A stretch of DNA of 64,000 bases from Candidatus Latescibacterota bacterium (GTDB taxonomy: Bacteria; Latescibacterota; UBA2968). The position numbers and the translations under genes are program-made. The notes below the pieces were generated by a model. That model searched no databases. It was not told where the DNA came from and worked only from the letters and a program-made list of their open reading frames with translations. The number at the start of each line of letters is the position of its first letter. The first letter of the stretch is position 1. Of the stretch, positions 1 to 53,584 are shown in pieces. The stretch spans positions 3,158,932 through 3,222,931 of the forward strand of contig OZ220741.1 in the NCBI GenBank assembly GCA_965116885.1. Direction: 5' to 3'.

Positions 1-677
1 GCGATCTCAATGACCGCATAGATGTCGCGAAATCCGCTACGCGCCTGAGTGTCGTGACTAAGAATGCGTGGTCGCGAGATTTGCGTGAACTCGATAAGCG
101 CGCACAGGTCTGGCTCCAGGCGAATGCACCCGCTTTTGCCAATGAAGCATCGGGTTTGAGCATTGTCTTTGCCCACTTATCTCTACGAAATATCAATAGC
201 ATGTTGCGCGGTACGATCACTGCGATGGCACTTATTTCGTTCATCCTGATCTGGATTTTCAAGAGTGTTCGGGTCGGTCTGCTCAGCTTGTTGCCCAATT
301 TTATCCCCGCAATTATGAGCTTCGGTCTGTGGGGCTATCTCGTCGGTCATGTGGGCATTGCATCTTCGGTGGTGATCGCCGTTGTTTTTGGAATTGTCGT
401 GGATGATACGATTCATTTTTTGAGCAAATATTTGAAGGCCCGGCGCGATGGCCTTCCCGCACCCGAGGCCGTGCGCTATACTTTTAACACGGTGGGCCAT
501 GCGTTATGGACGACGACCGCAGTGTTGTCAGTGGGCTTTCTGGTGTTCGCCACATCGGGATTTGAGGTTAGTTGGGCACTCGGCCTTTTGGTCACGGTTA
601 CGATTGTCTTCGCGCTTGTTGCCGACTTTTTACTTTTGCCAACTCTGCTGATTGCTATTGATCGGAGAAATTCATGA
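1..677 (+). CDS. RND-superfamily exporter (MMPL/HpnN-like), C-terminal part; gene starts upstream of window
   Basis: Frame is open to position 1 and the ORF-track start at 54 is an internal GTG. The product is hydrophobic multi-TM with a GIVVDDTIHF-type motif typical of the RND/MMPL transmembrane domain. Its stop overlaps the next gene's start. Confidence 0.6.
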   Translation, partial: DLNDRIDVAKSATRLSVVTKNAWSRDLRELDKRAQVWLQANAPAFANEASGLSIVFAHLSLRNINSMLRGTITAMALISFILIWIFKSVRVGLLSLLPNFIPAIMSFGLWGYLVGHVGIASSVVIAVVFGIVVDDTIHFLSKYLKARRDGLPAPEAVRYTFNTVGHALWTTTAVLSVGFLVFATSGFEVSWALGLLVTVTIVFALVADFLLLPTLLIAIDRRNS

Positions 678-1483
678 TACCAATACGACCAATACACCTG
701 TTTTTCGCGTTTTGTCCAATTATTTTGTTTTGTCTCGGCGTGTCATCACCCGCTCGTTCCGAAACCGCAGAGGAAACCGGGTTGAAAATCGCTCAGGATT
801 CCCAGGATCGCGAGAAGGGTTTTGGTAATTTTACAGCCCAACAAACCATGGTGTTGCGCAACAAACACGGGCAAGAGAGCCGTCGCCAACTCCGGGTAAA
901 GGTTCTCGAGGTCTCCGAAGATGGCGACAAGAGCCTGTTTGTGTTCGATGAACCGCGCGATGTCAAGGGAACGGCGTTGCTTATTCACGCGCATAGGGAA
1001 AGCGCGGACGACCAATGGCTTTATTTGCCTGCTCTGAAACGCGTCAAGCGCATTAGTTCGTCCAACCAGTCCGGCTCTTTTATGGGAAGTGAATTTGCTT
1101 ATGAGGACCTGACCCCTCAGGCTGTGGAGAAATTTACCTATCGTTACCTGCGCGACGAGGCATATAGCGATTTGACATGCACGGTCTCAGAACGCTTTCC
1201 CGTGGATAAGAAATCGGGCTATAGCCGCCAGGTGGTCTGGAGGGATAAGGACGAACTTCGCGTCTGGAAAGTGGAGTATTACGATCGCAAGAATTCACAT
1301 CTGAAGACGCTTACTCTGGAGAATTACGCGCAGTATCTGGATCGTTACTGGCGCGCTGGGGAGATGACGATGGTCAATCATTTAACCGGGAAAAGTACGG
1401 TTCTGACCTGGACGGATTTTGAGTTTCAGACAGACCTCAATGATCGTGATTTCACACAAACTGGGCTGAAACGGGTGCGTTGA
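674..1483 (+). CDS. LolA-like outer-membrane lipoprotein-sorting family protein (RND-exporter accessory)
   Basis: 269 aa with an N-terminal signal peptide and LolA-like composition. It is translationally coupled to the flanking genes (ATGA overlap at 1480-1483), and this family is frequently encoded next to MMPL-type RND exporters. Confidence 0.45.
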   Translation: MIPIRPIHLFFAFCPIILFCLGVSSPARSETAEETGLKIAQDSQDREKGFGNFTAQQTMVLRNKHGQESRRQLRVKVLEVSEDGDKSLFVFDEPRDVKGTALLIHAHRESADDQWLYLPALKRVKRISSSNQSGSFMGSEFAYEDLTPQAVEKFTYRYLRDEAYSDLTCTVSERFPVDKKSGYSRQVVWRDKDELRVWKVEYYDRKNSHLKTLTLENYAQYLDRYWRAGEMTMVNHLTGKSTVLTWTDFEFQTDLNDRDFTQTGLKRVR

Positions 1484-2751
1484 TGTTACGTCGTACCGCT
1501 CTTCATATTTTAACTTTCGACGCTGTCTGGATTTTGTCCCTGGTCTTTGCCATTAGCGCAGGTGCCGAAATTGGGATTGACCGCGATTTTTCCGGGCGCG
1601 TGAATATCGAAAGCCGATGGTTTCCCCAAGCCGGTGCCTTTTCCGGCCAGGGGGCTCATGCCATCGGTTTTTTTGTGGAACCCAAACTCTATCTTGCAGA
1701 CGCTAAGGGTCGAAGCCTCACGCTATCGCCGTTCTTTCGCTACGACAATGCGGACTCACGCCGCACCCATGCCGATCTGCGCGAAGCCTATTTTCTGATA
1801 TTCGGCGAGATCGGCGATGGTGAATGGGAGTTGCGCGTGGGTATTGACCAGGTTTTCTGGGGCGTTACGGAATCGCAACATCTGGTCGATATTGTCAATC
1901 AGATCGATCTGGTTGAACATCCAAATGGAGAGACAAAGCTGGGACAACCGATGGTGAATATCACCTATTCCAGCGATTGGGGGATAGTGGAGTTTTTTGT
2001 TTTGCCGTATCACCGGGTGCGCACGTTTCCGGGGCAATCTGGCCGCCTGCGCCTTCCGCTCGTGGTGGAAGATGAGCAGGTCGAGTACGAGAGCGAAGGG
2101 GGGGAGTGGCATCTGGATTTCGCAGCCCGGTACAGTCAAAGTTTTGGGGTTGTCGATGTTGGCCTGAGTGTGTTCAACGGTACCAGCCGGGAGCCTTTTC
2201 TAATGCCGGGTTCGGACCGTAGTGGTGCGCCGGTATTGGTTCAGCACTACGATCAGATCCGTCAGTTTGGGCTGGATGCGCAACTCACTGTTGGCTCGTG
2301 GTTGTTCAAGCTCGAGGCTATTCAGCGTGCTGGTGCTCGCAATCTGCTCGGGATAAAAGAAGATTATGTGGCTTCCGTTTTTGGCGGCGAATACGCGTTT
2401 TATTCCGTCTTTGGCTCTGCAGTTGATGTCAGCTTGCTCGGCGAATGGAATTACGATGGGCGAGGGCGAAATGCGACGCCGAGTCGCTCGCCCAATACGC
2501 TCGAAAACGACTTCTTTTTTGCTACGCGCCTCGCGTTCAACGATGTTCAGAGTACTGAAATTGTCGCCAGTATTCTGGGAGATGTAGATCGCGCGACACG
2601 CGCACTATCTATGGAATTGGATCGACGCATCTCAGATCTGTTGTCTTTAAACCTGGAGGCGATTCACCTTCTCAGTATTGATAAAGCGGATATCCACTAC
2701 GATACGCGGCGCGATAGTTTTATTGATCTGAGGCTGATTTACCATTTTTAG
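1480..2751 (+). CDS. Predicted outer-membrane beta-barrel/porin-like hypothetical protein (third gene of the RND exporter module)
   Basis: 423 aa with a signal peptide, alternating amphipathic beta-strand-like segments and an aromatic C-terminus (…IYHF). It is coupled to the upstream gene. Confidence 0.35.
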   Translation: MMLRRTALHILTFDAVWILSLVFAISAGAEIGIDRDFSGRVNIESRWFPQAGAFSGQGAHAIGFFVEPKLYLADAKGRSLTLSPFFRYDNADSRRTHADLREAYFLIFGEIGDGEWELRVGIDQVFWGVTESQHLVDIVNQIDLVEHPNGETKLGQPMVNITYSSDWGIVEFFVLPYHRVRTFPGQSGRLRLPLVVEDEQVEYESEGGEWHLDFAARYSQSFGVVDVGLSVFNGTSREPFLMPGSDRSGAPVLVQHYDQIRQFGLDAQLTVGSWLFKLEAIQRAGARNLLGIKEDYVASVFGGEYAFYSVFGSAVDVSLLGEWNYDGRGRNATPSRSPNTLENDFFFATRLAFNDVQSTEIVASILGDVDRATRALSMELDRRISDLLSLNLEAIHLLSIDKADIHYDTRRDSFIDLRLIYHF

Positions 2752-2752
2752 T

Positions 2753-2862
2753 TATTGCACAATCTCTAATTAAAAAACAACCCCACCCGGAATACCCTGG
2801 CGGGGTTGTTTGGTTGTATGAAGAAGCGATCACATTACCACAGGTGACATACCCGGTTCGCC
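2753..2862. repeat. Repeat copy A: ~110-bp element with a GC-rich hairpin (caaccccacc…ggcggggttg) flanked by an A-tract and a T-tract, so a bidirectional intrinsic terminator, plus a conserved 3' segment caccacaggtgacatacccggttcgcc
   Basis: It aligns at about 85% identity in the same orientation with 10203..10317. It sits between convergent gene ends (stop at 2751 on plus, stop at 2920 on minus). Confidence 0.6.
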
Positions 2863-2919
2863 TTGTGAACTGCACGCATACGCCGAACGAATTGGTAGTC
2901 CTTCGGTCTAAGACGCACT

Positions 2920-4347
2920 TTACGCGTGACGCTTTGACACGGTCATGGGAACGGGAGCTTTCACCATGGAAAGCAGGAAGAGAGCGCTGACCCGTTCCTT
3001 GAGCGGACCGGGAGAGACAGTATCAAGTCGCAACCGCTGGGCGGTGCTCGCCAAAAAATAAACGCAGACGCGCATGGCAAATTCCCTTCCTGTACATTGG
3101 CGGGTATCATAACCGAACGGCATGTAGGCACACGGAGGGCGCTCCGGCTGTGGGTCCTTCAGCCAGCGCTCTGGCCGAAATTCTTCGGGTTGATCCCAAT
3201 ATTGCGGGTTCCGATTGTGGGCGTCTATAACGCTCAACACCATCGTCCCTTTGGGAATACTATAGCCACCGAGATCATAATCCTGCCTTGTGACCCGGTT
3301 CAGCACAGGTGCGGGAGCCCCAAGTCGCAGAGTCTCTGACATAATGGCCCTGGTATAGGAGAGCTTATCATAATCTTCGACCATGATCTGACGATCACCC
3401 AGGACATCATCGACCTCCTCTTCCAAACGCCTGCGCACTTCGGGATAATAGGCGATGTGGCCCACCGCCTTCGTGAGCGCAATCAGCGTTGGATCGATCG
3501 GAATCGTGATGTTTTCGACCAGCAGATCGTGAACCTCAAGGTCGCTGAGAAGTCCCTCTCCATCCTCCCTGGTATTCGCATCTATCAGACGCGAAGCCAT
3601 GCTGTAGGGGGCATGGGACCCATTGCGGACTTGTTCGATGGTCTTGTAGATCAAGGCACTCAATTCCCAGAACGATTTTTTGGAACTTCTGCTCCTTGGC
3701 AGGGGGAACTTTCTAAGCAGCGATGTGCCCGGAAGAGCGCAGAGTATCATGTCCTGCTTGTATCCCTCCATCGCATCCACGACGACGCTCGGCCGGATAG
3801 CGTCGAGTGCGTTTCCGAGATTCATGCGAATAACGCAATGCGCCTGGAGATCTCTCAATTCCTTCCAGAGGTGAATCATCTGGCCAGGCTTCCAGCGTGC
3901 GTGCAGTGCCTGGATATTCTCAATGATTCGCGCTGAATGTGCCTCCAGGAACTTACGGTCCAGGAGCCCTGGCCCCATCAGTTTGAGCGACCTTTCGTAA
4001 AACGCATCATCGCTCCCGTTCAGGCCCAAAGTACATTCGACAAAAAGACTCTTCTTTTCCGGGTTCATGTAGTCTATCGGGTTGAACTTGCGAAACGCCT
4101 GTACGGGTGGACCGTCTGGATTGTCTGGATCAGGGATTTTTGCTGTTAAAACTTCGTGTATGAGATCCAGATCATACACGATGCAGTAATTCAGGACCGG
4201 CATCTTGTAGTAGCTGATGTCACCGTATTTCTCGCGAAGCTCTTTCAGAAAACGGGAAAAATCCGACATATGTTTTATCAGATTGTACAGCTTGGGTCCC
4301 CTGGGACCGGGAGGCAATTTTGGGCTTTTTTTGATTGACTTTCGCAT
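2920..4347 (-). CDS. Cytochrome P450 monooxygenase
   Basis: The heme-binding signature PFGYDTRQCTG (FxxGxRxCxG) is present with the cysteine ligand. An N-terminal proline-rich PPGPRGP hinge is present. An SD sequence GAGGAGG lies 8 nt upstream of the ATG. Confidence 0.85.
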   Translation of the reverse strand: MRKSIKKSPKLPPGPRGPKLYNLIKHMSDFSRFLKELREKYGDISYYKMPVLNYCIVYDLDLIHEVLTAKIPDPDNPDGPPVQAFRKFNPIDYMNPEKKSLFVECTLGLNGSDDAFYERSLKLMGPGLLDRKFLEAHSARIIENIQALHARWKPGQMIHLWKELRDLQAHCVIRMNLGNALDAIRPSVVVDAMEGYKQDMILCALPGTSLLRKFPLPRSRSSKKSFWELSALIYKTIEQVRNGSHAPYSMASRLIDANTREDGEGLLSDLEVHDLLVENITIPIDPTLIALTKAVGHIAYYPEVRRRLEEEVDDVLGDRQIMVEDYDKLSYTRAIMSETLRLGAPAPVLNRVTRQDYDLGGYSIPKGTMVLSVIDAHNRNPQYWDQPEEFRPERWLKDPQPERPPCAYMPFGYDTRQCTGREFAMRVCVYFLASTAQRLRLDTVSPGPLKERVSALFLLSMVKAPVPMTVSKRHA

Positions 4348-4395
4348 ACGTCAATCCTCCTCATTTAGATCTATGTCATAGCAATTCAAAAGCTA

Positions 4396-7300
4396 TTAGA
4401 TTTGTGTCGCGTTTGCGCCGGGATGCCCGTTTTTTCGTTCCGAAAAATGGAAATACACCGTGGCCAGTGCGGGCACGATCATCATCAGAATCGCCGTTGC
4501 AAAGACGATTCCAAATCCCACTGACACGCCTAACGGGATTAAAAACTGCGCCTGAATACTTTGCTCGAGGATGAGTGGCGTGAAGCCGAGGAAGGTGGTC
4601 GCCGAGGTCACAAAAATCGGGCGAAAGCGCTCTTTGGCACCATTGATGATCGCATCTTGTATTGATACTTCCTCCTTCAACCGCTCGTTGATGAAATCGA
4701 TCATCACGAGAGAATCATTCACGACGACTCCGCTGAGTCCGATGATTCCCCACATGGACGTAATGCTCAAATCAAGCCCCATGATCAGGTGGCCCAGGAT
4801 GGCGCCGACGAGCCCGAAGGGGATGACGGCCATGATGATGAGGGGTTTGGTGTAGGAACCAAGAGGAATCGCCAGCAACGCATATATCACCAGCAAAGCA
4901 AGGACCAGGCCGCGCCCGAGTGCGTCGAAGGATTCGAGTTGTTGCTGCTGCTCGCCTCCGAACGTATAGGTGAGGCCCGGGTGAATGTTCGCGAGATCAG
5001 GGAGGATCGTACTTGTGAGGATGTTGGTCACCTCCTCCCCCGTGATCACGGCAGGATCTACATCTGCAGTGACGATGACAACGCGCTGGCCGTTTTTCCG
5101 CCGAATTGACGAGGGTGAATCGCTCAAATTTACGGAAGCAACACGGCTCAGAGGCACTTCGGCTCCGGCCGGTGTACGGATCAGATAGCCCTCGACATCA
5201 GCGATTGCGTCTCGTTCCACCGCGGGAAGGCGCACGTACACACGCACATCTTCCTTGCCCCGTTGCACTCGAAGTGCTTCGTTGCCGAAGAACGCAGATC
5301 GCACCTGCCGGGCCAGTCCATCGAGCGTGAGACCGAGCGTTCGTGCTTCTGGCCGCAACTCAAGCTGGATCTCCTGAAGGCCAGCGGCATGATCCGATTG
5401 AACATCGAAGACCCCCTGGAACCCGAGGAGACTTTCCACCACCGCGTCACCGATTGAACCGAGACGATCGGGGTCCGGATGGGAAAGCTCGATCTGGACA
5501 GAAGAGCCTAAGTCGATCAGATCTGCGGAGAACGTGAGGCTGCGAGCTACTGGTACAATGCCGACCTCTTCCCGCCATGCCTGTAGAAAGTCGCCCGAGG
5601 TAATATCCCTCCGCTCAGTTGGCTGCAGCTTGAACTCCACAGCGGCGATATGGGCCTGCGGCTTCAGGCTGGGTTCCTGTGCGATGCCTCCTCCGACCAT
5701 CTGAGGTCTTGCGCCGACGGTCAAGTTCACCCCGACCACCAGCGGCTCGACATTCTCGGGCTGTCCTGCAGACAGCCGATTGATGGCCCGATGTCCCGCA
5801 GCTTCGATTTCCCTGGCCAGTCCGCCAGTCCGCTGAGCTAGCGTTCCTTCCGGCATTTCGAGGTTGGCCGTCACGATGTCGGCCTCAACAGGTTCGTTCA
5901 AGATCATTCCAATGATTCCCGCGGGGATCAGGGCGACGCAGAGAATGATCATTCCTACGCCACTTGCGATCACCACGGCAGGTTGGCCTGTAGCCAGCCG
6001 TAGTATCCGGTCCAGGGGGCCTGCCACGAAGCGCTTCAACTCCCTATCCACGCGGTATTGGATGCGAGAGAAGAAGCGATCGAAGGGGTTGTTCGGTTTC
6101 CACTCAGGACCTGGCAAGTGGGACAAGTGATTTGGCAAGATCAACAGTGATTCCATCAGGGAAATCAAGAGTACGGTGATCAAGATCACCGGAACCGGAC
6201 CCATCATACGTCCGATTGGCCCGGGTAGGAAAAGGAGAGGTGTGAAAGCAGCCACTGTCGTGAGGACTGCGAAGATCACAGGTCCCTTGATCCGTTGGGT
6301 ACCGCGGATCGCCGCGAGGACCCCTGCCGTGCCCTTCTGCCGTTCGGCATGGATATACTCGGCCACGACGATGGCGTCATCCACCACGATGCCAACTGCG
6401 AGAATGAAAGCGAATAGGGAGATCGTGTTGATGGAGACATTGAGGATCAGCATGACTGCCAACGCGCCAACAAAGGAAATGCCAATTCCGGCGGCGACCC
6501 ACAGGGCAAGCCGAATTTGTAGAAAGAGGGTTAGAGATACGAGGACAAGCATCAGCCCCAGAAAGCCGTTTTTGAGGAGCAGGTTGAGTCGGTCCTCGTA
6601 GATATCCGCGTCGTTATTCCAGATCTCTATCGTTACACCAGTGGGAAGCGAGGGGATCACGTACAGGTGCAAGTGTTCTTCTATGGCCTCCACGACATCC
6701 AGCACTTGTTCCCCTTCGGACCGGTACACCTCCACGAACGCGGCTCGCTGCCCGTTGTAGCGGGTGATCATATCTATATCCTGGAAGCCATCGCGCACTT
6801 TGGCGATGTCGCCCAGACGAACCAGCGTACCGTCATCCCGGCTCAAGACTACGATATCCTCAAAATCCTGCTGGTCATAGTTCCGGCCCGTAGTTCGGAC
6901 CCGCACTTCTGCATCCCTCGTCTCGATTCTGCCGGCTGATAGCTCAAGGGATTCGTTGCGAACTTCCCGCGAAATGTCCTCAAGGGTCAGTCTCAGAGCC
7001 TGCAGCCGGCGGAGAGGCACTTCGATCGAGATCTCGTAGTTGCGTACGCCACTCGTCTCGACATAAGAGACCTCGGAAAGGGAGGAGAATTCGTCCTCAA
7101 TTCGGTGGGCCAGTTCCTTGAGCGTGCGCTCGGATACGTCCCCGTAAAGAACCAGACGCATCACGCTCTGGCGATTAGTCATCTGTCTGATTTCTGGGCG
7201 CTCGGCCCCGATGGGAAAGGTCTGGATTCGGCTGATCGCAGACTCAATATCGTCCAGTGCACGGCTGATGTTTGTGCCGATCTTCAATTCTGCCATGACG

Positions 7301-7602
7301 GATGCGTAGCCCTCCGTCGCGATAGCCGTGACCTCTTTCACTTCTTCAAGTGTTTCGACATGTTCCTCGATCTTGAGGACAATCGACTCTTCCACTTCAT
7401 CCGGGGTGGCGCCGGGGTAGGGCACCGATATCTCGATGTGGTCGAAAGAAAGCACTGGGAACGCTTCCTGCACCAGGCTATTCATCGAGATGAGTCCCGC
7501 CACCAGTATAAAGACCATCAGAAGATTGGCGGCGACGCCGTTCCTGACCATATAAGCTATGAGACCGCGCTGTTCTTGAGCGGAAATGTCGTCCTGGCTC
7601 AC
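4396..7602 (-). CDS. RND multidrug/hydrophobic-compound efflux permease (HAE1, AcrB/AcrD/AcrF family)
   Basis: 1068 aa with 12-TM architecture, two large periplasmic loops and characteristic AcrB-family sequence throughout. Its start overlaps the MFP stop (ATGA). Confidence 0.9.
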   Translation of the reverse strand: MSQDDISAQEQRGLIAYMVRNGVAANLLMVFILVAGLISMNSLVQEAFPVLSFDHIEISVPYPGATPDEVEESIVLKIEEHVETLEEVKEVTAIATEGYASVMAELKIGTNISRALDDIESAISRIQTFPIGAERPEIRQMTNRQSVMRLVLYGDVSERTLKELAHRIEDEFSSLSEVSYVETSGVRNYEISIEVPLRRLQALRLTLEDISREVRNESLELSAGRIETRDAEVRVRTTGRNYDQQDFEDIVVLSRDDGTLVRLGDIAKVRDGFQDIDMITRYNGQRAAFVEVYRSEGEQVLDVVEAIEEHLHLYVIPSLPTGVTIEIWNNDADIYEDRLNLLLKNGFLGLMLVLVSLTLFLQIRLALWVAAGIGISFVGALAVMLILNVSINTISLFAFILAVGIVVDDAIVVAEYIHAERQKGTAGVLAAIRGTQRIKGPVIFAVLTTVAAFTPLLFLPGPIGRMMGPVPVILITVLLISLMESLLILPNHLSHLPGPEWKPNNPFDRFFSRIQYRVDRELKRFVAGPLDRILRLATGQPAVVIASGVGMIILCVALIPAGIIGMILNEPVEADIVTANLEMPEGTLAQRTGGLAREIEAAGHRAINRLSAGQPENVEPLVVGVNLTVGARPQMVGGGIAQEPSLKPQAHIAAVEFKLQPTERRDITSGDFLQAWREEVGIVPVARSLTFSADLIDLGSSVQIELSHPDPDRLGSIGDAVVESLLGFQGVFDVQSDHAAGLQEIQLELRPEARTLGLTLDGLARQVRSAFFGNEALRVQRGKEDVRVYVRLPAVERDAIADVEGYLIRTPAGAEVPLSRVASVNLSDSPSSIRRKNGQRVVIVTADVDPAVITGEEVTNILTSTILPDLANIHPGLTYTFGGEQQQQLESFDALGRGLVLALLVIYALLAIPLGSYTKPLIIMAVIPFGLVGAILGHLIMGLDLSITSMWGIIGLSGVVVNDSLVMIDFINERLKEEVSIQDAIINGAKERFRPIFVTSATTFLGFTPLILEQSIQAQFLIPLGVSVGFGIVFATAILMMIVPALATVYFHFSERKNGHPGANATQI

Positions 7603-8792
7603 GGATCTCCTCCATCCGCAATTCGCACCGACATGCCTTCCGTGGCGATCTGAATCCCACCCACGACGACAGGTTGGCCCGCTTCGAGTGCTCCGATCAC
7701 GAATACCTCATCGCCGGAACGTTGTAGGATGCGTACCGGGACTATAGTCACAGTGCTATTGCGTATCGCCCAGACTTCGTTGCCAGTCCTGAGCGCCGGG
7801 GGAGGCACTCTGTAATACCTATCTGGAGCGATTCCCTGAATTTGCACTTCCACGAACTTACCCACGAGAAGAGGCGGGACAGAACCCATGTCTGCCGCCT
7901 CGACCTGGGTCCCGCTCGTGAAAGGATCCGGAACGCGCACGATTACGTCGATGGTCCGCGTCTGTTTGTCCAGGGATGCCTCCGCCCGATCCACATAGCC
8001 TTTCCAGGCGTAGCTTCTATTACCGTATTCAGCTATGACACGAGCCTTGACCCGCCTATCTCCGTCGCCCGCTTCCAGCTTCCAAAGGTCGGGAATAAGG
8101 GCCGTATTGGCATCGGAGAGGGGAACCACCACCTCTACTGTATTGGTCGCATAAAGTCGCCCTACACTCTGACCGGCTACCACAAACTGCCCCATATCTA
8201 TCGATTCTGCCTGCACGACACCTCTGAAAGGCGCGCGGACTTTTGTGCGTGCCAAAGCCAACTCGGCATCGGCGAGCACAGCACTATCTCTCGCCACTGC
8301 GGCTCGGGCTGCCTCGAGCTGAGGCTCCCATAATGCAAGGGGATTGGCCTTGGCTATATCCGTTTGGCTGCGTCTGAATTGGGCGTACTCAGCGCGTGCG
8401 ATCTGGGCTTCTTCATTCGTCCGGAGGAGTGCGACATGCTGTGCGACCACGTTGGCGCGGGCTTGCTTTACTCTGTTGCGGTAGTCGGCGTCATTGATGC
8501 GAAAGAGAATTTGTCCCTTGCGGACTCGTCCACCGCTCTGAAAGGTAGGAGCGACCCAGATAATCTTACCGTTGATTTCGGCGGCGACATCTATCTCTGC
8601 GACGGGCCGAACCGTTCCTGCCCCGTACACAGGGATGGCACCGGTACCGGCTATTACGGGAGTTGTGACTGCGAAGGGAATTTGGGAGGGAAGAGGCCGG
8701 AGTTCTGGCTCGGGCCTTAACCAGACCATAAACCCGGCAAAAAACAGGGATATGAGGAGGATAGCACCGGCCGGGAACAAGCGTCGATTCAT
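7599..8792 (-). CDS. RND efflux periplasmic adaptor subunit (MFP/HlyD family)
   Basis: 397 aa with a single N-terminal TM anchor, a coiled-coil hairpin region and beta-barrel/lipoyl-like segments. It is translationally coupled to the RND pump. Confidence 0.8.
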   Translation of the reverse strand: MNRRLFPAGAILLISLFFAGFMVWLRPEPELRPLPSQIPFAVTTPVIAGTGAIPVYGAGTVRPVAEIDVAAEINGKIIWVAPTFQSGGRVRKGQILFRINDADYRNRVKQARANVVAQHVALLRTNEEAQIARAEYAQFRRSQTDIAKANPLALWEPQLEAARAAVARDSAVLADAELALARTKVRAPFRGVVQAESIDMGQFVVAGQSVGRLYATNTVEVVVPLSDANTALIPDLWKLEAGDGDRRVKARVIAEYGNRSYAWKGYVDRAEASLDKQTRTIDVIVRVPDPFTSGTQVEAADMGSVPPLLVGKFVEVQIQGIAPDRYYRVPPPALRTGNEVWAIRNSTVTIVPVRILQRSGDEVFVIGALEAGQPVVVGGIQIATEGMSVRIADGGDP

Positions 8793-8826
8793 CTCTTATC
8801 TCTCTTGGCTCATAGCGGTCGATGGG

Positions 8827-10005
8827 CTACCATTCTTGCGTTTCATCTTCGTCGTGGAGTGCCGTCGGTAGCTTGTATGAAATTTCATACTTGCCCAAAT
8901 TCGACGTTTTCAGGATGATGTCGAAATGGGTGAAATCATGATGGTGAAACCAGCGCAGGTATAGCTTCTGAAGTACCCGCTCTACACGGTACTTTAATCG
9001 CATAAACGGAAGTATCCGAATTCGTTTCCCAGCTGGGAACCTGAATAAATCGGCCATATAGTTGCCGATTAACTCCCGGGATACTTGATAAAACGACTCT
9101 GCTTTCGCGCCGCGCTCCCTGGGTTCAGTGAATCCCAATACGATGGGTGCACTATTGATAATGCTATTTGCCATGATGATTTCATCGTCCTCCGGCAGAG
9201 GTTCGCATAATACTCCGATCACAAACGCTCGGCAGGCCGATGCTTCGTCGTGGAACATGATTGCATCGGGTATCCCCATGACCAACCCGGCATATCTCCA
9301 GACGTGAACGTAGGCTTCGCGTTCCTTTGCATTGAAGTCGCCGCCAAGGCGTTCGACGTGCTGCATGAGACGTCCGGAGAAGGCTGCGGCCCCGAGCAAC
9401 ATATGCGCTGCACTGAGCGGCATTCCATACGTTGTCTCGTCCCATTCATCCGAGTCCTTAATCAGCCTTCTCGACTGTGCATGCACAAGGCGGATTCGAA
9501 GATTCAGTTTCCAACCATCGCCTCCGGGATACAGTCCACCAGGTATAAACTGTTCCAATAGATGCAGGTTATTTTGCTTGAGCCGGCGAACGCCGTGTCC
9601 GATGATTCGGCCCCTGATGAGAAACGACTTGCTGATTAACGTGGAAAAACCCTCTACGATGGCACCGGTTGCCAGGCCTGCCAGAATTATTTCCGGGTTG
9701 CGAAGAAATGCCTCAGTGGCTATCAGGGCAATGTCTTGATCAAACCAGTCTGGGATGACTGCCGCCTCGGCGATGAGCGTTCTCAGAGATTCGGGCGTGT
9801 TTTTCGGCAGATTTTCATGATTATTAAGTGCCGCGCTTATGATCCTGTTTATTTGTTCAGGGGGGGTACTCTCCACTAGTTCCTCAACCACCCGATCCGC
9901 CAAAGGATCCCCGACAGTCGTATGGCGGATATAGGCCTCCGCGAACTCGGGATCTCTACGCCGGGCCGCATTGTATCCATTGACATAAGATGCTGGAATT
10001 TCCAT
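8827..10005 (-). CDS. Hypothetical soluble protein; possibly a DUF2236/MpaB-like (heme oxygenase-type) protein, a low-confidence assignment
   Basis: 392 aa, no TM or signal, and first gene of the minus-strand operon, 34 bp upstream of the MFP. The family call rests only on length, composition and conserved His/Arg positions and is not verified. Confidence 0.3.
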   Translation of the reverse strand: MEIPASYVNGYNAARRRDPEFAEAYIRHTTVGDPLADRVVEELVESTPPEQINRIISAALNNHENLPKNTPESLRTLIAEAAVIPDWFDQDIALIATEAFLRNPEIILAGLATGAIVEGFSTLISKSFLIRGRIIGHGVRRLKQNNLHLLEQFIPGGLYPGGDGWKLNLRIRLVHAQSRRLIKDSDEWDETTYGMPLSAAHMLLGAAAFSGRLMQHVERLGGDFNAKEREAYVHVWRYAGLVMGIPDAIMFHDEASACRAFVIGVLCEPLPEDDEIIMANSIINSAPIVLGFTEPRERGAKAESFYQVSRELIGNYMADLFRFPAGKRIRILPFMRLKYRVERVLQKLYLRWFHHHDFTHFDIILKTSNLGKYEISYKLPTALHDEDETQEW

Positions 10006-10202
10006 TTCGATTTTTTAGTCTATCTTTCTAATGTCTTTTGGTTGTATGATTTTGGAATTTACTGCCATTAATAATTATACTCAAAATAGACGATATATAG
10101 CCCTAAAGACGATATATAAACCCAAAATATATCATTATTAGTCTAAAAGATCAATTCTAAAAAAATCAGGTCTCATTTTCCCTTATGAGAGAAGATCAAG
10201 TC
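10006..10202 (-). promoter_or_regulatory. AT-rich (about 30% GC) upstream region of the oxygenase-like/MFP/RND/P450 operon containing a tandem direct repeat agacgatatata (10088..10099 and 10107..10118, 19-bp spacing)
   Basis: Base composition contrasts sharply with the ~50% GC surroundings. The exact 12-bp direct repeats resemble tandem transcription-factor half-sites. The region lies immediately upstream of the operon's first start codon. Confidence 0.3.
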
Positions 10203-10317
10203 CTGCACAATCTACAATTACATTAAAAACACCCCCGCCCAGAATGGCCAGGCGGGGGTTTGTTTGGTTGTATAAAAGGGGCGATTACGTCACCACAGGT
10301 GACATACCCGGTTCGCC
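10203..10317. repeat. Repeat copy B: paralogous ~115-bp element with hairpin acccccgcc…ggcgggggt, A/T flanks and the same 3' segment caccacaggtgacatacccggttcgcc
   Basis: It aligns with 2753..2862 in direct orientation. Its 3' part forms the last ~11 codons (…AGEPGMSPVVT) of the minus-strand sulfatase at 10285..11604, and the hairpin with T-tract lies just downstream of that gene's stop. Confidence 0.6.
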
Positions 10318-11604
10318 CGCGTGGTATGACGCCAGGCACCAGGGGTCTCGGGTTTCTTTGCGGAAGGTGCGAACTTTTTGTCGCATGACTTCGGCGATGT
10401 CCTGAACCTCCGGGTCGTCGATGATGTTGGTGGATTCCATGGGATCATTTTCGATATCGAAAAGGGCTTCTGCATCCTGGTGCAAAAATTTTTCCGTGCG
10501 GCGTTTGCCCATTTCCAAATTTTCTCTGCGGATGGCCTGCCAGGTGGGCGAGGCCCACAGGTCACTGGGCAAAGGGGTGGTGATTTCGGGATAGAGATTG
10601 CGCACGTATTTGTATTTGCGTCCACGCAGTACCCGATAGGGGTAGTAATTGGTGACTTCGTGGAAGGTGTGGGAAAAGAAGGTTTCGTCAAATCCCTCGG
10701 GATGTGCTTCGCCGAGGATGGGGACGAGGGATTTTTCAGGTAGCCCTTCGGGAGCTTCAACGCCACACCATTCAAAGACGGTGGGGGCGATGTTGTTCCA
10801 GTTGACGAGGGCGTCGCTGACAACAGCTGCGGCATCTGGGCGCGCAATGATGAGCGGACAGTGGTGACCCGTGTCAAAAGAAGAGGCTTTGCCGCCGGGA
10901 AAGGGCATGCCGTGATCGCTCATGACGATGATCAGGGTATCCTCGGCACGACCAGCGTCTTGAAGTGCCTGCACAGCCATGCCTATGCCGGTGTCGAGGC
11001 GAGAGACGGATTGGTAGTATTCGGCAAATTCTCGTCGAACATCTGGATGGTCGGGCAAAAAGTCGGGAACGATGACTTCGTCTGGGGAGTATGTGACTTC
11101 GGGAACGCCGGGATAGGTTTGTTTGTTGCCGAAGTCACGGTGAGGATCGGAATAACCGACGTGTAGATAGAATGGCTGGTCGCTGTCAATGGTTTCAAAG
11201 AATTTTGAGATGTTGTCTGCAATACCGCGCACATTGCGCCCACCACCAGCTTCGTAGTTCCAGGGATAGACAGATTCGGGTTGGACGTGGAGTTTGCCGA
11301 CAACGCCGGTTGTGAATCCGGCGGATTGTAGGGTTTTGGGAATTGACGGCATGTTGAGTTGTGTGTGGAAGTTGTGGATGCTATGCGAGTGACCGTATTG
11401 TCCGTGCGTGTGGCTGTAGTGCCCGGTGAGCAGGTTGGCGCGGCTGGCCGCACACGATGGGGTGGTGCAAAAGGCGTGCTTAAATAAGGTGCCCCGCGCG
11501 GCAAGGGCATCTACGCTGGGCATTTTGATAATATTATTGCCATAACATCCGGCAATGGGACTCCAATCGTCGGCAATGAGTAAGAGGACGTTGCGATAGG
11601 ACAT
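10285..11604 (-). CDS. Sulfatase (alkaline-phosphatase superfamily, arylsulfatase-like) with non-canonical active-site motif
   Basis: The N-terminus begins NVLLLIADD, matching the sulfatase metal-binding start. The active-site region is FCTTPSCAASRANLLTGH, where the CxPxR position reads C-A-A-S-R. No signal peptide is present. Confidence 0.85.
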   Translation of the reverse strand: MSYRNVLLLIADDWSPIAGCYGNNIIKMPSVDALAARGTLFKHAFCTTPSCAASRANLLTGHYSHTHGQYGHSHSIHNFHTQLNMPSIPKTLQSAGFTTGVVGKLHVQPESVYPWNYEAGGGRNVRGIADNISKFFETIDSDQPFYLHVGYSDPHRDFGNKQTYPGVPEVTYSPDEVIVPDFLPDHPDVRREFAEYYQSVSRLDTGIGMAVQALQDAGRAEDTLIIVMSDHGMPFPGGKASSFDTGHHCPLIIARPDAAAVVSDALVNWNNIAPTVFEWCGVEAPEGLPEKSLVPILGEAHPEGFDETFFSHTFHEVTNYYPYRVLRGRKYKYVRNLYPEITTPLPSDLWASPTWQAIRRENLEMGKRRTEKFLHQDAEALFDIENDPMESTNIIDDPEVQDIAEVMRQKVRTFRKETRDPWCLASYHAGEPGMSPVVT

Positions 11605-11615
11605 AAGATCTCCTT

Positions 11616-12932
11616 TTAATTTCTTATTGAACTGTTGTCGCGTTTTCGCTCATCGGCTATTTGTTCGAGCATGCGATGCACGCGGTCGAGTTGTGTAGAT
11701 GTTATATTTGCCGTTTCGTAAGGATCGGAACCGATGTGAAAAAGTTCGGTTTCTTCGGGGGTTTGGCCTTCTTCGTAGATCAATTTCCAATTGCCCGTTC
11801 GCATGCCAAAGGACGATCCTCTAAAATTCCAGAAGATAGACCGTTCTTCGGGTATAGCGATGTCGCCCGTGAGCAGGGGCCAGATGTCTTGGCCATCCCA
11901 TTGGGGATCGCTGTTGGGCGTATAGTCAATGAGATTGGTCAGGGTTGGCATCCAGTCGGTTATGTGCAAGGGGTGAAAGCATTTGCCGGGTTGCAGATGA
12001 AAAGGCCAATTAATCAGGGATGGCGTGCGAATGCCGCCTTCGTAGAGTTGAGATTTTTGACCTCGCAGGGGCAAATTGCAGCCCAGGCGCGGCATGTCTT
12101 CGTGTCGGCCCGGGTATTTGTCCGTGTCGTGAAGGGGACCGGCAGGGATGGCACCGTTGTCCGATGAGAAGATGATGATGGTGTTTTCGCGCTGGCAGGT
12201 GCGGGCAAGGGTCTCGACGAGTTGACCGATGGCGTGATCCATCTGGCTGGCGTACGCGGCATAGGTTTTGAATGAGCGGTCTTTGTTGTCGTCGAGGTCG
12301 TAGCGCCGGTCTGAATAGCGGTCTATCCAGTGTTGCGGCGCTTTGATGGGGGTATGAACAGCGGTGAAAGGAACATAGCAAAACCAGGGACCTGTTTGCG
12401 CTTCGATCCACCGGGTGGCTTCCCGAGCGATGAGGTCGGTGACGTGGCCGCGTTCTTCAATGAGTTCGCCATTGCGGTGCCAGGTGACGCTGAATGGTCC
12501 CGATTTGTAGCGGTGGTTATACGGGTCAACGCCGCCGGCAAGGCTTCCATAAGCGGCATTGAAACCAAATTGGTTGGGGCCGTATTCGGGAGAAGATCCC
12601 AGATGCCATTTTCCAAAGAGGCCGGTTTCGTAGCCCGCATTGCGGAAGGAGGAGGCCAGTGTTTCATAGCCATCTGGGAGGACGGGAGCGTTGGAGGGGA
12701 CGGTGGCGTGGCGTCCAAAGCGACCGGGATGGCGGCCCGTTAGGAGACAGGTGCGAGTGGGAGTACACATGGGACAGACGTAGTGCTGGTCGAGTTCGAT
12801 TCCCGTGGCTGCGAGGCGGTCGATATTGGGCGTGCGAATGTGTGAGCCGTGATAGCTGACGTCACCCCAGCCCATGTCGTCGGCGAGGATGAAGAGAATA
12901 TTGGGTTTTTCAATTTTTCCAGATTTGGTCAT
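11616..12932 (-). CDS. Sulfatase (arylsulfatase family) with canonical CTPTR motif
   Basis: ILFILADDMGWGD and CPMCTPTRTCLLTGR signatures are present. The most likely start is the internal Met of MTKSGKIEKPNILF, which avoids overlap with the upstream VanZ-like gene. No signal peptide is present. Confidence 0.85.
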   Translation of the reverse strand: MTKSGKIEKPNILFILADDMGWGDVSYHGSHIRTPNIDRLAATGIELDQHYVCPMCTPTRTCLLTGRHPGRFGRHATVPSNAPVLPDGYETLASSFRNAGYETGLFGKWHLGSSPEYGPNQFGFNAAYGSLAGGVDPYNHRYKSGPFSVTWHRNGELIEERGHVTDLIAREATRWIEAQTGPWFCYVPFTAVHTPIKAPQHWIDRYSDRRYDLDDNKDRSFKTYAAYASQMDHAIGQLVETLARTCQRENTIIIFSSDNGAIPAGPLHDTDKYPGRHEDMPRLGCNLPLRGQKSQLYEGGIRTPSLINWPFHLQPGKCFHPLHITDWMPTLTNLIDYTPNSDPQWDGQDIWPLLTGDIAIPEERSIFWNFRGSSFGMRTGNWKLIYEEGQTPEETELFHIGSDPYETANITSTQLDRVHRMLEQIADERKRDNSSIRN

Positions 12933-12954
12933 GTCAGGTGTCCTGTTAAATATT

Positions 12955-13362
12955 CTATAAAATCCACTGTCTGATTTTACCGTTTTCTCTGTGTTTCGCA
13001 TACCACAATAGCAGGATTATAATTGCGACACCTGTGCCATCCCACACCACATCGGTCCAGACGCCAGTGCGACTGGGTACAAAGGATTGATGGTATTCGT
13101 CCAATATCGCATAGAGAATGGATATCAGGACGCTCCACAATACACAGGGGGCAAATCGGTTCTTTGTCCATAGAGATCGGAAACACAGATAGGTCAGAAT
13201 AGCATATTCTGCTATGTGGGCAAATTTGCGTACGGCATGGTGTATTCGTTCACTAAAAAAGAAAATTTTTTCTGTATTCTCGAACGATAGCAGGCCGCTT
13301 GAACCAATAAAAATTAAGAGTAGCCAGACAAACAGGGCGATGCGCCAATGCATTGTTGTCAT
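12955..13362 (-). CDS. VanZ-like family membrane protein
   Basis: The conserved VanZ motif DEYHQSFVPSRTGVWTDVVWDGTGV (DExxQ…R…D…N/D.G) is present with four TM segments. The start was chosen at MTTMHW, downstream of the preceding gene's stop. Confidence 0.55.
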   Translation of the reverse strand: MTTMHWRIALFVWLLLIFIGSSGLLSFENTEKIFFFSERIHHAVRKFAHIAEYAILTYLCFRSLWTKNRFAPCVLWSVLISILYAILDEYHQSFVPSRTGVWTDVVWDGTGVAIIILLLWYAKHRENGKIRQWIL

Positions 13363-13375
13363 GTGTTTTTCCACC

Positions 13376-14116
13376 CTATTGTGCTGTTTTGAGGGCTTGT
13401 ATCGCGTCGTCGGTGGCGTCAATGACATGGGTACCTGAGGGTACGATAAATTCAAACCATTTGTCTTTGACGTCCGGATTGATGCTCAAATTGTGAAAGG
13501 TCTGCGTGATGATCTCATTGTTTTCGGCATCAAAAAATCCAACCCGGCGCAACAGACCGTCTTCGGGATTGATGAGTAATTGTGCTTTGACAGGGGGATT
13601 AGGCAGTTGTGCGTGTAAGAGATTGACTTTGATCTTTGCTTCAAAGACTCGGTGGGGGCGTTCTTCAAATATTTCGTCTGCGGTGTAGCGAATGCTCGTC
13701 CATTCCAGACCTCTAAAGGGACGCAGGGGGTCGGCCTGGTCTGCATCGGCTTCGAGGTTGGTGATGCGATAGACGCGCCCCAGGTTCACTTTGGAGACGA
13801 TTTTTTCTTCGCGGTCATAGGTCCACATCAGGCCGCCATCCGACAGGCGTTGTGAAATAATCACTTGATCTTGTACGGTATCGAGGCGCATCAGGTTGGG
13901 GCGTTTAAAGGTTGCGCTGGCATTGAGCGTCAGTTTCTGATCCATTACGCGAATGACTGTGGTCTGTTCGGCCTTACAGGTGGCGATTTCTCTGGCATTT
14001 TTTTGAATTTCGACCATTATTTCATCGGTTTTCCCATCTCCTGTTGACATTTTGTTTTCATTTTCCGCGCTGACCTGAGCTGTGAGGATCAGCATTGCGA
14101 CCACCCAGCGTTTCAT
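13376..14116 (-). CDS. Secreted LolA-like/DUF4292-like periplasmic protein (hypothetical)
   Basis: The signal peptide MKRWVVAMLILTAQVSA is followed by a ~225-aa soluble domain with LolA-like beta-rich composition. Confidence 0.35.
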   Translation of the reverse strand: MKRWVVAMLILTAQVSAENENKMSTGDGKTDEIMVEIQKNAREIATCKAEQTTVIRVMDQKLTLNASATFKRPNLMRLDTVQDQVIISQRLSDGGLMWTYDREEKIVSKVNLGRVYRITNLEADADQADPLRPFRGLEWTSIRYTADEIFEERPHRVFEAKIKVNLLHAQLPNPPVKAQLLINPEDGLLRRVGFFDAENNEIITQTFHNLSINPDVKDKWFEFIVPSGTHVIDATDDAIQALKTAQ

Positions 14117-14119
14117 AAC

Positions 14120-14725
14120 TTGCTCCTTATGAGAAATTTTATTCTTCGCGCTCGCAAAGGCCCGACCACACCAGATTTTTCGCTGGATGATCTGCGCCGA
14201 GTTGGACGATTGGAGATTGTGGCGCATTGTTTGGCTAACGCGCTTTTTTATTCTCAAAATATACGAACCAATACTACTGTACACCTCGTTTTTGATGGAC
14301 CTTCGGATCCGCCGAAAACCGTGCGTTTTGAAAGCGATCAGTTACCCTATTTGGGTGGATTTGATGAACGTACTTTAGCAGGGGTTGTACAAAAAGCACT
14401 ATCTGTTGGCAAGGGTTTGTCATTGGGCGAAGAGCGACAGGTTGATAACGGTCTTTTTGTGGCAAAAAAGGGATTTGAACGCGTTGTGCAAGATCACACG
14501 GAATCGCTCTATGTGCTCGAGCGCAGAGGTGTTGACATCCGTAAGGTGACATTTCCCCAGGATGTGACGTTTGTTTTTTCAGACCATCTCACAATGCCCA
14601 AAAAAACGGCTAAATATTTGCGCCGCCTCGGTGCTAAACCAATTTGCGTGGGGCCCCAGATGCTGTTTGCTTCTCAGTGTATTGTGTTGCTACACAATGA
14701 ATTGGACCGGCAAGATGTCTGGTGA
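14120..14725 (+). CDS. trmY: TrmY-like SPOUT methyltransferase (tRNA pseudouridine-54 N1-methyltransferase family, DUF358/COG1901)
   Basis: The N-terminal signature FILRARKGPTTPDF…GRLEIVAHCLANALFYSQNIR matches the TrmY/DUF358 family. The likely true start is the ATG of MRNFIL, 9 nt inside the ORF. Confidence 0.5.
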   Translation: MLLMRNFILRARKGPTTPDFSLDDLRRVGRLEIVAHCLANALFYSQNIRTNTTVHLVFDGPSDPPKTVRFESDQLPYLGGFDERTLAGVVQKALSVGKGLSLGEERQVDNGLFVAKKGFERVVQDHTESLYVLERRGVDIRKVTFPQDVTFVFSDHLTMPKKTAKYLRRLGAKPICVGPQMLFASQCIVLLHNELDRQDVW

Positions 14726-14734
14726 AGTGGTTTA

Positions 14735-15229
14735 CTAAAAGAGTTTGAATGTCGCGCCAATGTGTCCGGAGAATCCACTGATGACATCGTTTTGATCTTC
14801 GACAAATTTAATCCTGGCAAATAGCCCGAGTTTTTCACCTATTGGAAATTTGTATCCCAATTCCCCACCTATAAAACGTTCAGAAGCACCATCGGATAGT
14901 ACAAAACCAATACTCGGTCCAAAAAACAGCTTGTGGGTTTCAAAGTCGCGCATGCCAATCGCATAATTGAGGCTCGTGCCCAGGGTGTGCATCATAGGGC
15001 TGGCAAAACTTATGTCGTAAAACGGCGCGAATATGAATGATCCAGGCAGGTTGACATGGACAGAGGTGTGCAGGGCAATCCCGCCAGCTGAATCAAATCG
15101 CGGGCGAATACTGTCGTTCCACATAAAACCTCCACCCAGGTTTACGCCGTCGATAAATGCCGCATCGGCAGTGCCCATATTAGAAGACAACACGCATAGC
15201 GCAAGACAAAAACTTTTTAGAATCTTCAT
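14735..15229 (-). CDS. Small outer-membrane beta-barrel protein (OmpW/opacity-type fold, hypothetical)
   Basis: Signal peptide MKILKSFCLALCVLSSNMGTADA is present. Glycine/aromatic-rich alternating strands run to a C-terminal aromatic (…ATFKLF). Confidence 0.5.
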   Translation of the reverse strand: MKILKSFCLALCVLSSNMGTADAAFIDGVNLGGGFMWNDSIRPRFDSAGGIALHTSVHVNLPGSFIFAPFYDISFASPMMHTLGTSLNYAIGMRDFETHKLFFGPSIGFVLSDGASERFIGGELGYKFPIGEKLGLFARIKFVEDQNDVISGFSGHIGATFKLF

Positions 15230-15257
15230 AAAACCTCCTTTAAAGTTTGATTCCCGA

Positions 15258-16322: not shown

Positions 16323-16468
16323 GTCCTATATCCAGATATTACTAAACAAAAAGTAATGTCTCTTGCCAGAGGGCACAACCGAAACCTTGCAGCAAAGGCC
16401 GTCTTTTTATATCTTTACCCAAATACGCGTGAAATATCCCCAGGGGGATTGCTCCCCCACAACAGGAG

Positions 16469-17527: not shown

Positions 17528-17556
17528 TCGTTTAAAAAATAAAGTTATGCGATACC

Positions 17557-17585
17557 AAAGGCCCGATACATCTCGGGCCTTTTGC
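17557..17585. terminator. Intrinsic terminator hairpin aggcccga-tacatc-tcgggcct followed by a T-run, between convergent nadA and the amidohydrolase gene
   Basis: An 8-bp GC stem and a TTTTG tail sit between the two stop codons. Confidence 0.4.
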
Positions 17586-17633
17586 GTTTCGATATTGCGT
17601 ATCAGACCTGTGTGTTTTTGGTCAACGCCAATC

Positions 17634-18965: not shown

Positions 18966-18983
18966 GTTTTCCTCCGTTTACTT

Positions 18984-20027: not shown

Positions 20028-20144
20028 AGCACAATCTCCCGTGTGATATGATTTGAAAAACGAAACAAATCAAGACCAATGTAAGGTCTCTATGATTAAA
20101 GGGCAAGTCTGAACTCATAGCTGGTTCCATTTGAAAGAAAAACC

Positions 20145-20400
20145 TTGACGCGAAAACAGAGACTTTCTATTTTGTGTACTATGAACGCATTGATCAAAAA
20201 CCCGGTTATTTTTTCAAATCCAAACACAATTTTGGCCGGGGATGCGTTTGTCCATACTGCCCAGCATCATACCCATCATGCTACGTCTGCGACTTTTTGC
20301 ATGATATGCTCGGCGGTGGATATGTCATAACAGTTTGTCCAATGAAATGAACAAGCCCGCTGTCGAGAGACAGTGGGCTTTTTTTTTTAGGAGAATGACA
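20145..20400 (+). promoter_or_regulatory. Putative hisI leader/attenuator: promoter, His-rich leader ORF, intrinsic terminator abutting the hisI RBS
   Basis: The promoter reads TTGACG (20145..20150), a 17-bp spacer and TATTTT. The leader ORF to the TAA at 20328 contains VHTAQHHTHHATS, with 5 His codons (all CAT) in 9 positions at 20253..20279. A 10-bp hairpin gcccgctgtc-gaga-gacagtgggc (20355..20378) is followed by 10 Ts (20379..20388), then AGGAG (20389..20393) and the hisI ATG at 20401. Confidence 0.35.
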
Positions 20401-41911: not shown

Positions 41912-41923
41912 AGCGATATCTCC

Positions 41924-53505: not shown

Positions 53506-53584
53506 AGTCCCTACCTCACATCTCCTGTTTCAACGCTGGCAATATGGGCAGGCGGGCACTTCGCTTTGTGCCGGAGAGAAACCA

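Follow-up and report, generated by a model that had tools for sequence, protein, structure and literature searches.

How does a four-gene operon come to lie between two direct repeats that each carry a terminator hairpin and the end of a neighboring gene? We addressed this question for one locus of an uncultured Candidatus Latescibacterota bacterium (GTDB lineage Bacteria; Latescibacterota; UBA2968; GenBank assembly GCA_965116885.1), using a 64,000-nucleotide stretch of contig OZ220741.1 (positions 3,158,932 to 3,222,931 of the forward strand). This stretch is referred to as the window, and coordinates are those of the window unless a contig is named. The operon encodes an MpaB/Lcp-like oxygenase, a membrane-fusion protein, an RND efflux permease and a cytochrome P450, and it lies between the convergent genes of a DUF1302-family protein and a sulfatase. 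A recent insertion of 7.4 kb at the 3' end of the sulfatase gene gave rise to the repeats, which mark its two junctions: one copy (A) is the displaced end of the resident site, the other (B) arrived with the insert, and the exchange between them is confined to a 26-bp block. As for the route, we hold with moderate confidence that the whole is best explained by a 7.4-kb operon that came from a related genome and recombined, via a shared spacer, into the sulfatase 3' end by homology.

The two repeat copies

The features of the repeats are as follows.

2756..2862, no strand: copy A, the resident intergenic spacer with the displaced sulfatase 3' end (pseudo-end), from the match to the conspecific empty site (103/107) and from translation
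2775..2811, no strand: bidirectional terminator hairpin of copy A, which would now end the DUF1302 operon (+) and the P450 operon (-), from predicted folds and sequence
2837..2862, no strand: 26-bp block identical to 10292-10317, the exchange region, with four non-resident bases at 2839-2847
2839..10302, no strand: full extent of donor-type DNA relative to conspecific empty-site genomes, from the mismatch map against contig L025
10204..10317, no strand: copy B, the imported, diverged spacer, which now gives the sulfatase its last codon, stop and terminator, from 25 differing columns against the resident within 10214-10302 and a ACAATTACATT variant as in copy B of contigs L008 and L009
10231..10259, no strand: terminator hairpin of copy B, from a terminator scan and predicted folds

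Copies A (107 nt) and B (114 nt) have the same orientation and are therefore direct repeats, their limits being set by where alignment to the single copy of the empty-site genomes begins and ends. A first-pass annotation of the window, made from the letters alone, had described two direct repeats of about 110 bp with terminator hairpins and about 85% identity. Alignment and predicted folds bear this out, although its start for copy A, 2753, lies 3 nt too far to the left. The copies are about 85% identical over aligned positions and are separated by three small indels totaling 7 nt. In both, a GC-rich hairpin has an A-tract ahead of it and a T-tract behind, and folds are predicted on both strands; the terminator scan gave the hairpin of copy B 12 base pairs, nine of them GC, followed by a run of T. 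The longest block identical between the copies is 26 nt, ACCACAGGTGACATACCCGGTTCGCC, for which the window holds two matches at up to three mismatches and 100 shuffles predict none. The remaining repeat motifs are likewise confined to copies A and B within the window.

The repeat unit is the entire spacer between the convergent DUF1302 and sulfatase genes, comprising the bidirectional terminator hairpin and the last 10 codons of the sulfatase with their stop. Copy B overlaps the sulfatase gene by 33 nt, which encode GEPGMSPVVT and a stop. The coding overlap claimed in the first-pass annotation is thus real but spans 10 codons rather than 11, the alanine codon lying outside the repeat. On its minus strand, copy A reads GEPGMSPVVM-stop, joined to no gene. 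Its homology ends precisely at 2862, the point at which the sulfatase coding sequence would continue, just as had been described.

Empty sites in conspecific and related genomes

Comparison with relatives for presence or absence of the segment at the sulfatase 3' end, as the annotation had recommended, found both empty (L001, L006, L007, L025 and L026) and filled (L008 and L009) sites. The conspecific ones were reached through a database protein (P0171) that is 100% identical to the DUF1302 protein of the window and that led to contigs L025 and L026, from different samples. Both are empty at the site, where they have just one copy of the spacer and lack the insert, and are 99.2% identical to window positions 1-2862 and 99.4% identical to 10204-20207. 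With flanks more than 99% identical and no insert between them, the insertion is a presence/absence polymorphism inside one species. Three empty sites come from other species (an ENA contig, L001, and two genome matches, L006 and L007) and carry genes for MpaB, MMPL, LolA-like and DUF1302 proteins, one spacer and a convergent sulfatase gene. In BLASTN, the window aligned to these three from position 1 to exactly 2862 at 89-91% identity, and again from 10203-10222 onwards at 91-92%, so both window copies correspond to one spacer. On the strength of these five single-copy empty sites, two of them conspecific, the repeats are read as insertion junctions, and the proposal that an element had inserted at the sulfatase 3' end holds.

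The annotation had named as alternatives a dispersed family of terminator repeats, similar to repetitive extragenic palindromes, or a 3'-untranslated-region small RNA, whose copies would be unrelated to any insertion. Such a reading could draw on the strong terminator hairpin in each copy. We searched 185,579 genomes, one per GTDB species, with a degenerate pattern that covered the terminator module but left out the sulfatase part. This gave two matches, one in each of two complete chromosomes of Candidatus Latescibacterota metagenome-assembled genomes (5.56 and 6.23 Mb), and both are empty sites of this locus. The same search in viral contigs gave no match, nor did an Rfam search of window positions 2600-10450 at E up to 1. 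Only two copies occur in the 64-kb window, one of them holds a displaced gene end, and the empty sites explain both. A repeat family is contradicted by a single copy, at this locus only, in each complete relative chromosome, a small RNA is left unsupported, and we consider this alternative almost certainly wrong. A transposon or insertion sequence with target-site duplication was also considered and rejected: there is no transposase, the insert ends have no terminal inverted repeats as read from the sequence, and copy B is not resident sequence.

A second polymorphism was seen in the neighborhood. To the left of what would be the window start, L025 (3558-4803) and L026 (4048-4803) carry an IS630-like gene pair (HTH_23 and DDE_3) between an EVE-domain gene and the AhpC gene, which L001 does not have at the same position.

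Resident and imported copies

Because the insertion is polymorphic within the species, resident and imported DNA can be separated to the nucleotide. In a mismatch map against L025, copy A is of resident type at 103 of 107 positions and differs only at 2839, 2840, 2846 and 2847. Between 10214 and 10302, copy B departs from the resident spacer in 25 columns, the sulfatase gene is of resident type from 10303, and the next mismatch does not come before 10712. For comparison, the flanks differ from L025 by 0.3-0.6%. Among all spacer alleles, copy B is the outlier; the B-type spacer sequence is TGCACAATCTACAATTACATTAAAAAC.

The four non-resident bases of copy A are the same bases as in copy B (2839/40/46/47 corresponding to 10294/95/301/302). 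The resident state, GCCAGGTTCC, is found in L025, L001 and L007 and, being common to the three, is ancestral; L006 has CA at the first pair, like the window. Within the shared segment, the exchange falls on the sole block that is coding-constrained and well conserved: GGCGAACCGGGTATG, the coding sequence of GEPGM, a motif conserved across homologues.

These alleles also bear on the possibility of an ancestral filled state, from which recombination between the repeats would have deleted the insert to leave the empty sites. Recombination between direct repeats of this length, about 110 bp, can delete the intervening DNA precisely, and the filled allele is present in two lineages. But all five empty sites have an A-type spacer and none has a B-type segment. 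Their core reads GTTCC, against GTGAC in both window copies, and GCCAGG is found in four of the five, whereas the deletion product of window copies A and B would carry CACAGGTGAC. The outlier position of copy B and the lower divergence of the insert than of the flanks between lineages point the same way, and we regard deletion from an ancestral filled state as very unlikely.

The annotation had further supposed that the element duplicated its target, as happens at att sites. There was no simple duplication, copy B being a diverged import; the arrangement does fit the logic of attP and attB, and not that of duplication by a staggered cut.

Mechanism of acquisition

Under the homologous explanation that we favor, the resident site would have consisted of the DUF1302 gene, a 78-nt spacer with a bidirectional terminator, and the convergent sulfatase gene. 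The donor would have been a related Latescibacterota genome with the same locus, and the incoming DNA would have brought the operon for the MpaB-like oxygenase, membrane-fusion protein, RND permease and P450, along with its own orthologous spacer, about 20% diverged, and the last 33 nt of the sulfatase gene. Circularized donor DNA would then have recombined with the chromosome in the conserved GEPGM-coding block of the sulfatase 3' end, as in Campbell-type integration. The hypothetical circle junction would be a B-type spacer, ending in CATACCCGGTTCGCC, joined to TTGTGAACTGCACG. By an equivalent route, an already duplicated allele might have been transferred by two crossovers hugging the insert, with the same end structure. 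As the outcome, the resident spacer (A) would stay with the DUF1302 operon and also terminate the new operon, and the imported spacer (B) would become the new end and terminator of the sulfatase gene. The anatomy of the locus agrees with such a division of labor: where a single bidirectional terminator would earlier have sufficed for the DUF1302 operon and the convergent sulfatase gene, copy A probably now terminates the DUF1302 and P450 operons, and copy B probably terminates the sulfatase gene and insulates the promoter region of the new operon (10006-10203). Since the incoming DNA carries its own version of the target terminator and gene end, both neighboring units and the new operon are each terminated, and the sulfatase is intact save for three tail residues.

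The presence of the same four donor bases in both copies implies non-reciprocal transfer, as in heteroduplex repair or gene conversion, and is unexpected for a conservative exchange with a 2-8 bp overlap. This non-reciprocity, the orthology of the whole spacer, a donor that is a variant of a relative's locus, and an exchange within the coding-constrained GEPGM block together favor general homologous recombination. We infer that the exchange was made by the general homologous recombination machinery with heteroduplex repair and not by a site-specific integrase.

Several points weigh against this explanation. If the recipient was L025-like, the longest unbroken identity between resident and imported DNA was only the 15 nt of CATACCCGGTTCGCC, and 15 nt is below the usual minimal length for efficient pairing by RecA. 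Neither a donor genome nor a circular form of the DNA was found. Conspecific empty sites amount to two contigs, a limited sample, and the four shared bases could reflect a resident polymorphism outside that sample or a short gene conversion at a later time. Finally, exchange in a short block at a gene 3' end, an element-borne surrogate gene end with its terminator, and use of the same site in two lineages form the classic signature of an integrase.

That signature is the case for site-specific integration, in which a non-autonomous element, either resembling a cis-mobilizable element (CIME) or mobilized in trans, would carry an attP with a surrogate sulfatase 3' end and terminator and would depend on a recombinase of the tyrosine or serine type whose gene lies at another place in the genome or has since been lost. 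The exchange does map to a short identical block, the imported copy restores the end of the open reading frame, the stop codon and the terminator, and the displaced resident end still adjoins the insert. The same insert also occupies the same site in a second species-level lineage, with divergence below that of the flanks. CIMEs, by definition, retain attL and attR without integration and transfer genes (PMC5704250).

Against this, no integrase, recombinase, transposase or excisionase was found among the open reading frames of at least 100 aa across the 64-kb window, and the insert holds no mobility-gene remnants. The annotation had reported no integrase in the bracketed segment; none of its four genes (2920-10005) encodes a recombinase, and the statement extends to the whole window. 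The junctions compare with the hybrids expected from attB and attP in that the left side of A is resident and the left side of B is donor-type; yet a reciprocal exchange at a single point would give hybrid sites, and both copies are instead donor-type at four positions over 9 nt, for which an additional conversion step or a resident allele outside the sample would be required. Homology between imported and resident DNA spans the whole 107-nt spacer, which is more than a core, and the edge of the insert is a fragment of a neighboring chromosomal gene and not an element-specific arm. Neither different cargo nor a cognate element was seen at the site in the empty or filled relatives, which is weak evidence from a small sample. 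There was no match in viral contigs, and a plasmid origin was rejected since plasmids showed generic RND-gene similarity only. We consider site-specific integration unlikely, though well short of implausible. The att-like interpretation given at first is accordingly weakened: nothing shows a site-specific recombinase, and the four shared bases and the pieces of neighborhood DNA lean towards general homologous recombination.

Comparison with known systems

Genomic islands and integrative elements at tRNA genes or gene 3' ends resemble this locus in their flanking direct repeats, 3'-end target, surrogate gene end that keeps the open reading frame intact, single-copy empty site and short identical exchange block. 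They differ in that the integrase normally lies inside the element near one att site, whereas no mobility gene is present here, and in that their att sites consist of a core with unrelated arms, whereas the homology shared here extends over the complete orthologous spacer (107-114 nt, with about 80% identity to the resident copy) and the junctions do not look like plain reciprocal hybrids. A CIME, which has attL and attR but no longer its genes for integration and transfer (PMC5704250), shares the att-like bracket around cargo devoid of recombination or transfer genes. Unlike a CIME, this insert shows no decayed remnants of an integrative and conjugative element (ICE) or integrative and mobilizable element (IME), the small sample showed no cognate ICE or IME specific for this site, and one four-gene operon of metabolic and efflux functions makes up the cargo.

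Campbell-type integration by single crossover, as with suicide plasmids, is similar in that the duplicated unit is the homology shared by incoming DNA and chromosome, with one copy resident and one imported. It may also leave conversion beside the exchange point and requires no dedicated recombinase; at this locus the repeats begin and end where homology to the empty site does. The present case differs as a natural event between sequences about 20% diverged, with very short blocks of identity and no observed circular intermediate. Flexible genomic islets that are swapped between strains by homologous recombination show, as here, presence or absence within a species (flanks >99% identical) and the same islet at the same locus in another species-level lineage with a history unlike that of the flanks. 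The endpoints of such islets usually lie far out in the flanking genes, whereas those at this locus fall in the repeat itself, no more than about 25 nt from the insert.

The insert is an ordinary genomic islet that has been mapped unusually precisely. The phenomenon is well known, and the locus presents neither a new kind of element nor any sign of a dedicated integration system. Its value is as a clean, base-resolved case of an uncultured Candidatus Latescibacterota gaining a metabolic and efflux operon, and as a caution for annotation, in that att-like repeats at a gene 3' end do not alone imply an integrase-driven element.

The AhpC fragment and the origin of the donor DNA

At the left edge of the insert, 2864-2897 is identical in 30 of 34 nt to L025 5146-5179 and in 29 of 34 nt to L006 965-999 (85-88%), a score reached by none of 500 shuffles. 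The matching AhpC/TSA gene of L025 and L006 stands just upstream of the resident MpaB operon in the same orientation, 6 kb upstream in the locus. This fragment and the imported spacer both show interspecies-level divergence from sequences of the same neighborhood. A fragment derived from the neighborhood, together with an orthologous spacer, indicates that the donor was a relative with the same locus, in which the incoming DNA had been put together at this site.

The joint at 2862|2863 places the sulfatase 3' end directly onto the interior of AhpC, in the orientation of the locus, and this is exactly the joint expected if the AhpC-to-sulfatase segment had been duplicated in tandem or had formed a circle. 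The repeat may therefore owe its ultimate origin, in the donor lineage, to tandem duplication of a segment that began at AhpC nucleotide 72 and reached the sulfatase 3' end, or to re-integration of that segment as a circle, with the redundant operon copy later replaced by the P450 operon. This would complement homologous acquisition, and the form of the novel joint is as it predicts. Homology of copy B running leftwards into a DUF1302 3' end, which would support a remnant of such a duplication, was not significant (67-124 of 1000 shuffles reached the score). The interior genes are inverted and only distantly related to those of the resident operon (MpaB paralogues 40% identical), and the intermediate structure was found in no genome. 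We view this origin as doubtful.

Filled relatives

Contigs L008 and L009 carry the same four-gene insert between the DUF1302 and sulfatase genes, and their copy B has the ACAATTACATT variant in common with copy B of the window. Their copy A retains the terminator, and 22 unalignable nt replace the 73 nt that in the window comprise the sulfatase pseudo-end and the next 29 nt; from the alignment, we read this as a probable small deletion in functionless DNA. Relatives carrying the operon here without the repeats had been put forward as evidence against insertion. These two do carry the operon with a copy A that lacks the pseudo-end, but the terminator part is still repeated, so the insertion model does not fail outright. 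A repeat search in L008 and L009 detected no direct repeat, the two copies being too diverged, with one hairpin flipped and the other copy lacking the pseudo-end. In alignments with every other allele, the hairpin of copy B (L008 2290-2330, L009 1240-1275) scores higher when reverse-complemented (31 against 20 with L007, for example), and the stem-loop appears to have flipped in place.

Compared with the window, the insert of L008 and L009 is 95% identical, the left flank 90% and the right flank 93%; third codon positions agree at 91-93% within the insert and at 77-86% within flanking genes. Since the insert is less diverged than the flanks, its common ancestor is younger than that of the host genomes, which indicates that the filled allele has moved between species-level lineages. 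It is in our judgment improbable that the operon travels between Latescibacterota species as a recurrently mobile unit, either as an integrase-free cassette with the orthologous terminator and gene end as a portable homology address, or moved in trans by an unlinked recombinase that recognizes a 15-26-bp GEPGM-coding core.

Gene content of the locus

The genes around and inside the insert are as follows.

54-677, + strand: tail of an MMPL transporter gene (Pfam)
674-1483, + strand: LolA-like gene (Pfam)
1480..2751, + strand: DUF1302-family gene, last of the resident MpaB-MMPL-LolA-like-DUF1302 operon and left flank of the insert (Pfam; protein 100% identical to P0171, encoded in L025 and L026)
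2864..2897, + strand: AhpC/TSA peroxiredoxin gene fragment of 34 nt, left edge of the insert, directly abutting copy A (similarity to L025 and L006)
2920..4347, - strand: cytochrome P450 gene, last in the inserted operon (Pfam PF00067, E 3.9e-55; 96% identical protein in L008/L009)
4396..7602, - strand: AcrB-type RND efflux permease gene (Pfam PF00873, E 1.3e-158)
7599..8792, - strand: membrane-fusion (HlyD-type) adaptor gene (Pfam PF13437 and PF16576)
8827..10005, - strand: MpaB/Lcp-like oxygenase gene, first in the inserted operon (Pfam PF09995)
10006..10203, - strand: AT-rich putative promoter region of the inserted operon, with two AGACGATATATA motifs (10088-10099 and 10107-10118) and sigma-70-like hexamers (conserved in L008/L009)
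10285..11604, - strand: sulfatase gene, whose 3' end is the insertion target and whose tail changed from MEPGVM-stop to MSPVVT-stop (Pfam)

The right flank consists of two sulfatase genes on the minus strand (Pfam), and the other genes of the window serve housekeeping and carbohydrate metabolism. The sulfatase of the window is identical to that of L025 in 435 of 438 residues, with all differences but one in the tail; no database entry matches it exactly, the tail being peculiar to the filled allele. The GC content of the insert is 54% against 51% for the window, and codon usage is unremarkable. The comparison of GC and codon usage that had been suggested is thus too weak to serve as a sign of foreign origin.

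The resident operon (MpaB-like oxygenase, MMPL, LolA-like and DUF1302 proteins) and the inserted one have a parallel make-up and stand side by side. By BLASTP, the inserted MpaB-like oxygenase and the MpaB that heads the resident operon in relatives are paralogues with 40% identity. Distant homologues of the operon in other bacteria have shuffled gene order and unrelated flanks (L010 and L016-L018, distant P450 relatives that have the operon in common but not the flanks). The MpaB, RND and P450 set thus appears to be a conserved functional module, and its recurrence in L010, L017 and L018 suggests an uncharacterized oxidation-and-export module. A scan of JGI metagenomes with the P450 protein gave heme-motif matches only. 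In the putative promoter region, the two AGACGATATATA motifs are exact and 19 nt apart, with one variant base in L008/L009, and they are absent upstream of the distant operon in L010; as a pair, they may form an operator.

Several further observations concern the sulfatase genes. The distant sulfatase relatives L002-L005 and L019-L024 were rejected as comparison loci on the ground that their loci are unrelated. One of them, L005 (1935-2660), holds the database sequence nearest to the sulfatase (89% identical). Beyond the end of that gene come long tandem repeats, a gap in the assembly and a PhyH gene in place of the terminator spacer, and the last four codons of the gene differ; the sulfatase 3' end is a rearrangement breakpoint there too. 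The sulfatase open reading frame of L001 (10001-11320, P0029) is 93% identical to the window in DNA but only 75% identical in protein, with about 100 middle residues out of frame. Deep divergence was rejected as the cause in favor of a double frameshift in the contig, which reflects either an assembly error or a pseudogene. The sulfatase genes at 10285-13001 and 26551-27900 have a coding-strand GC skew of -0.21, -0.21 and -0.14, where nearly all other genes of the window are near 0 or positive.

Elsewhere in the window, a PIN-domain gene adjoins a HicB-like antitoxin gene at 53083-53905; the PIN gene, at 42% GC, is lower in GC than any other gene of the window, and the pair is probably a small toxin-antitoxin islet. 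At 40808-42991, two adjoining Amidohydro_2 genes are tandem paralogues, in which DNA repeats with 75-76% identity recur at a spacing of 1113 nt.

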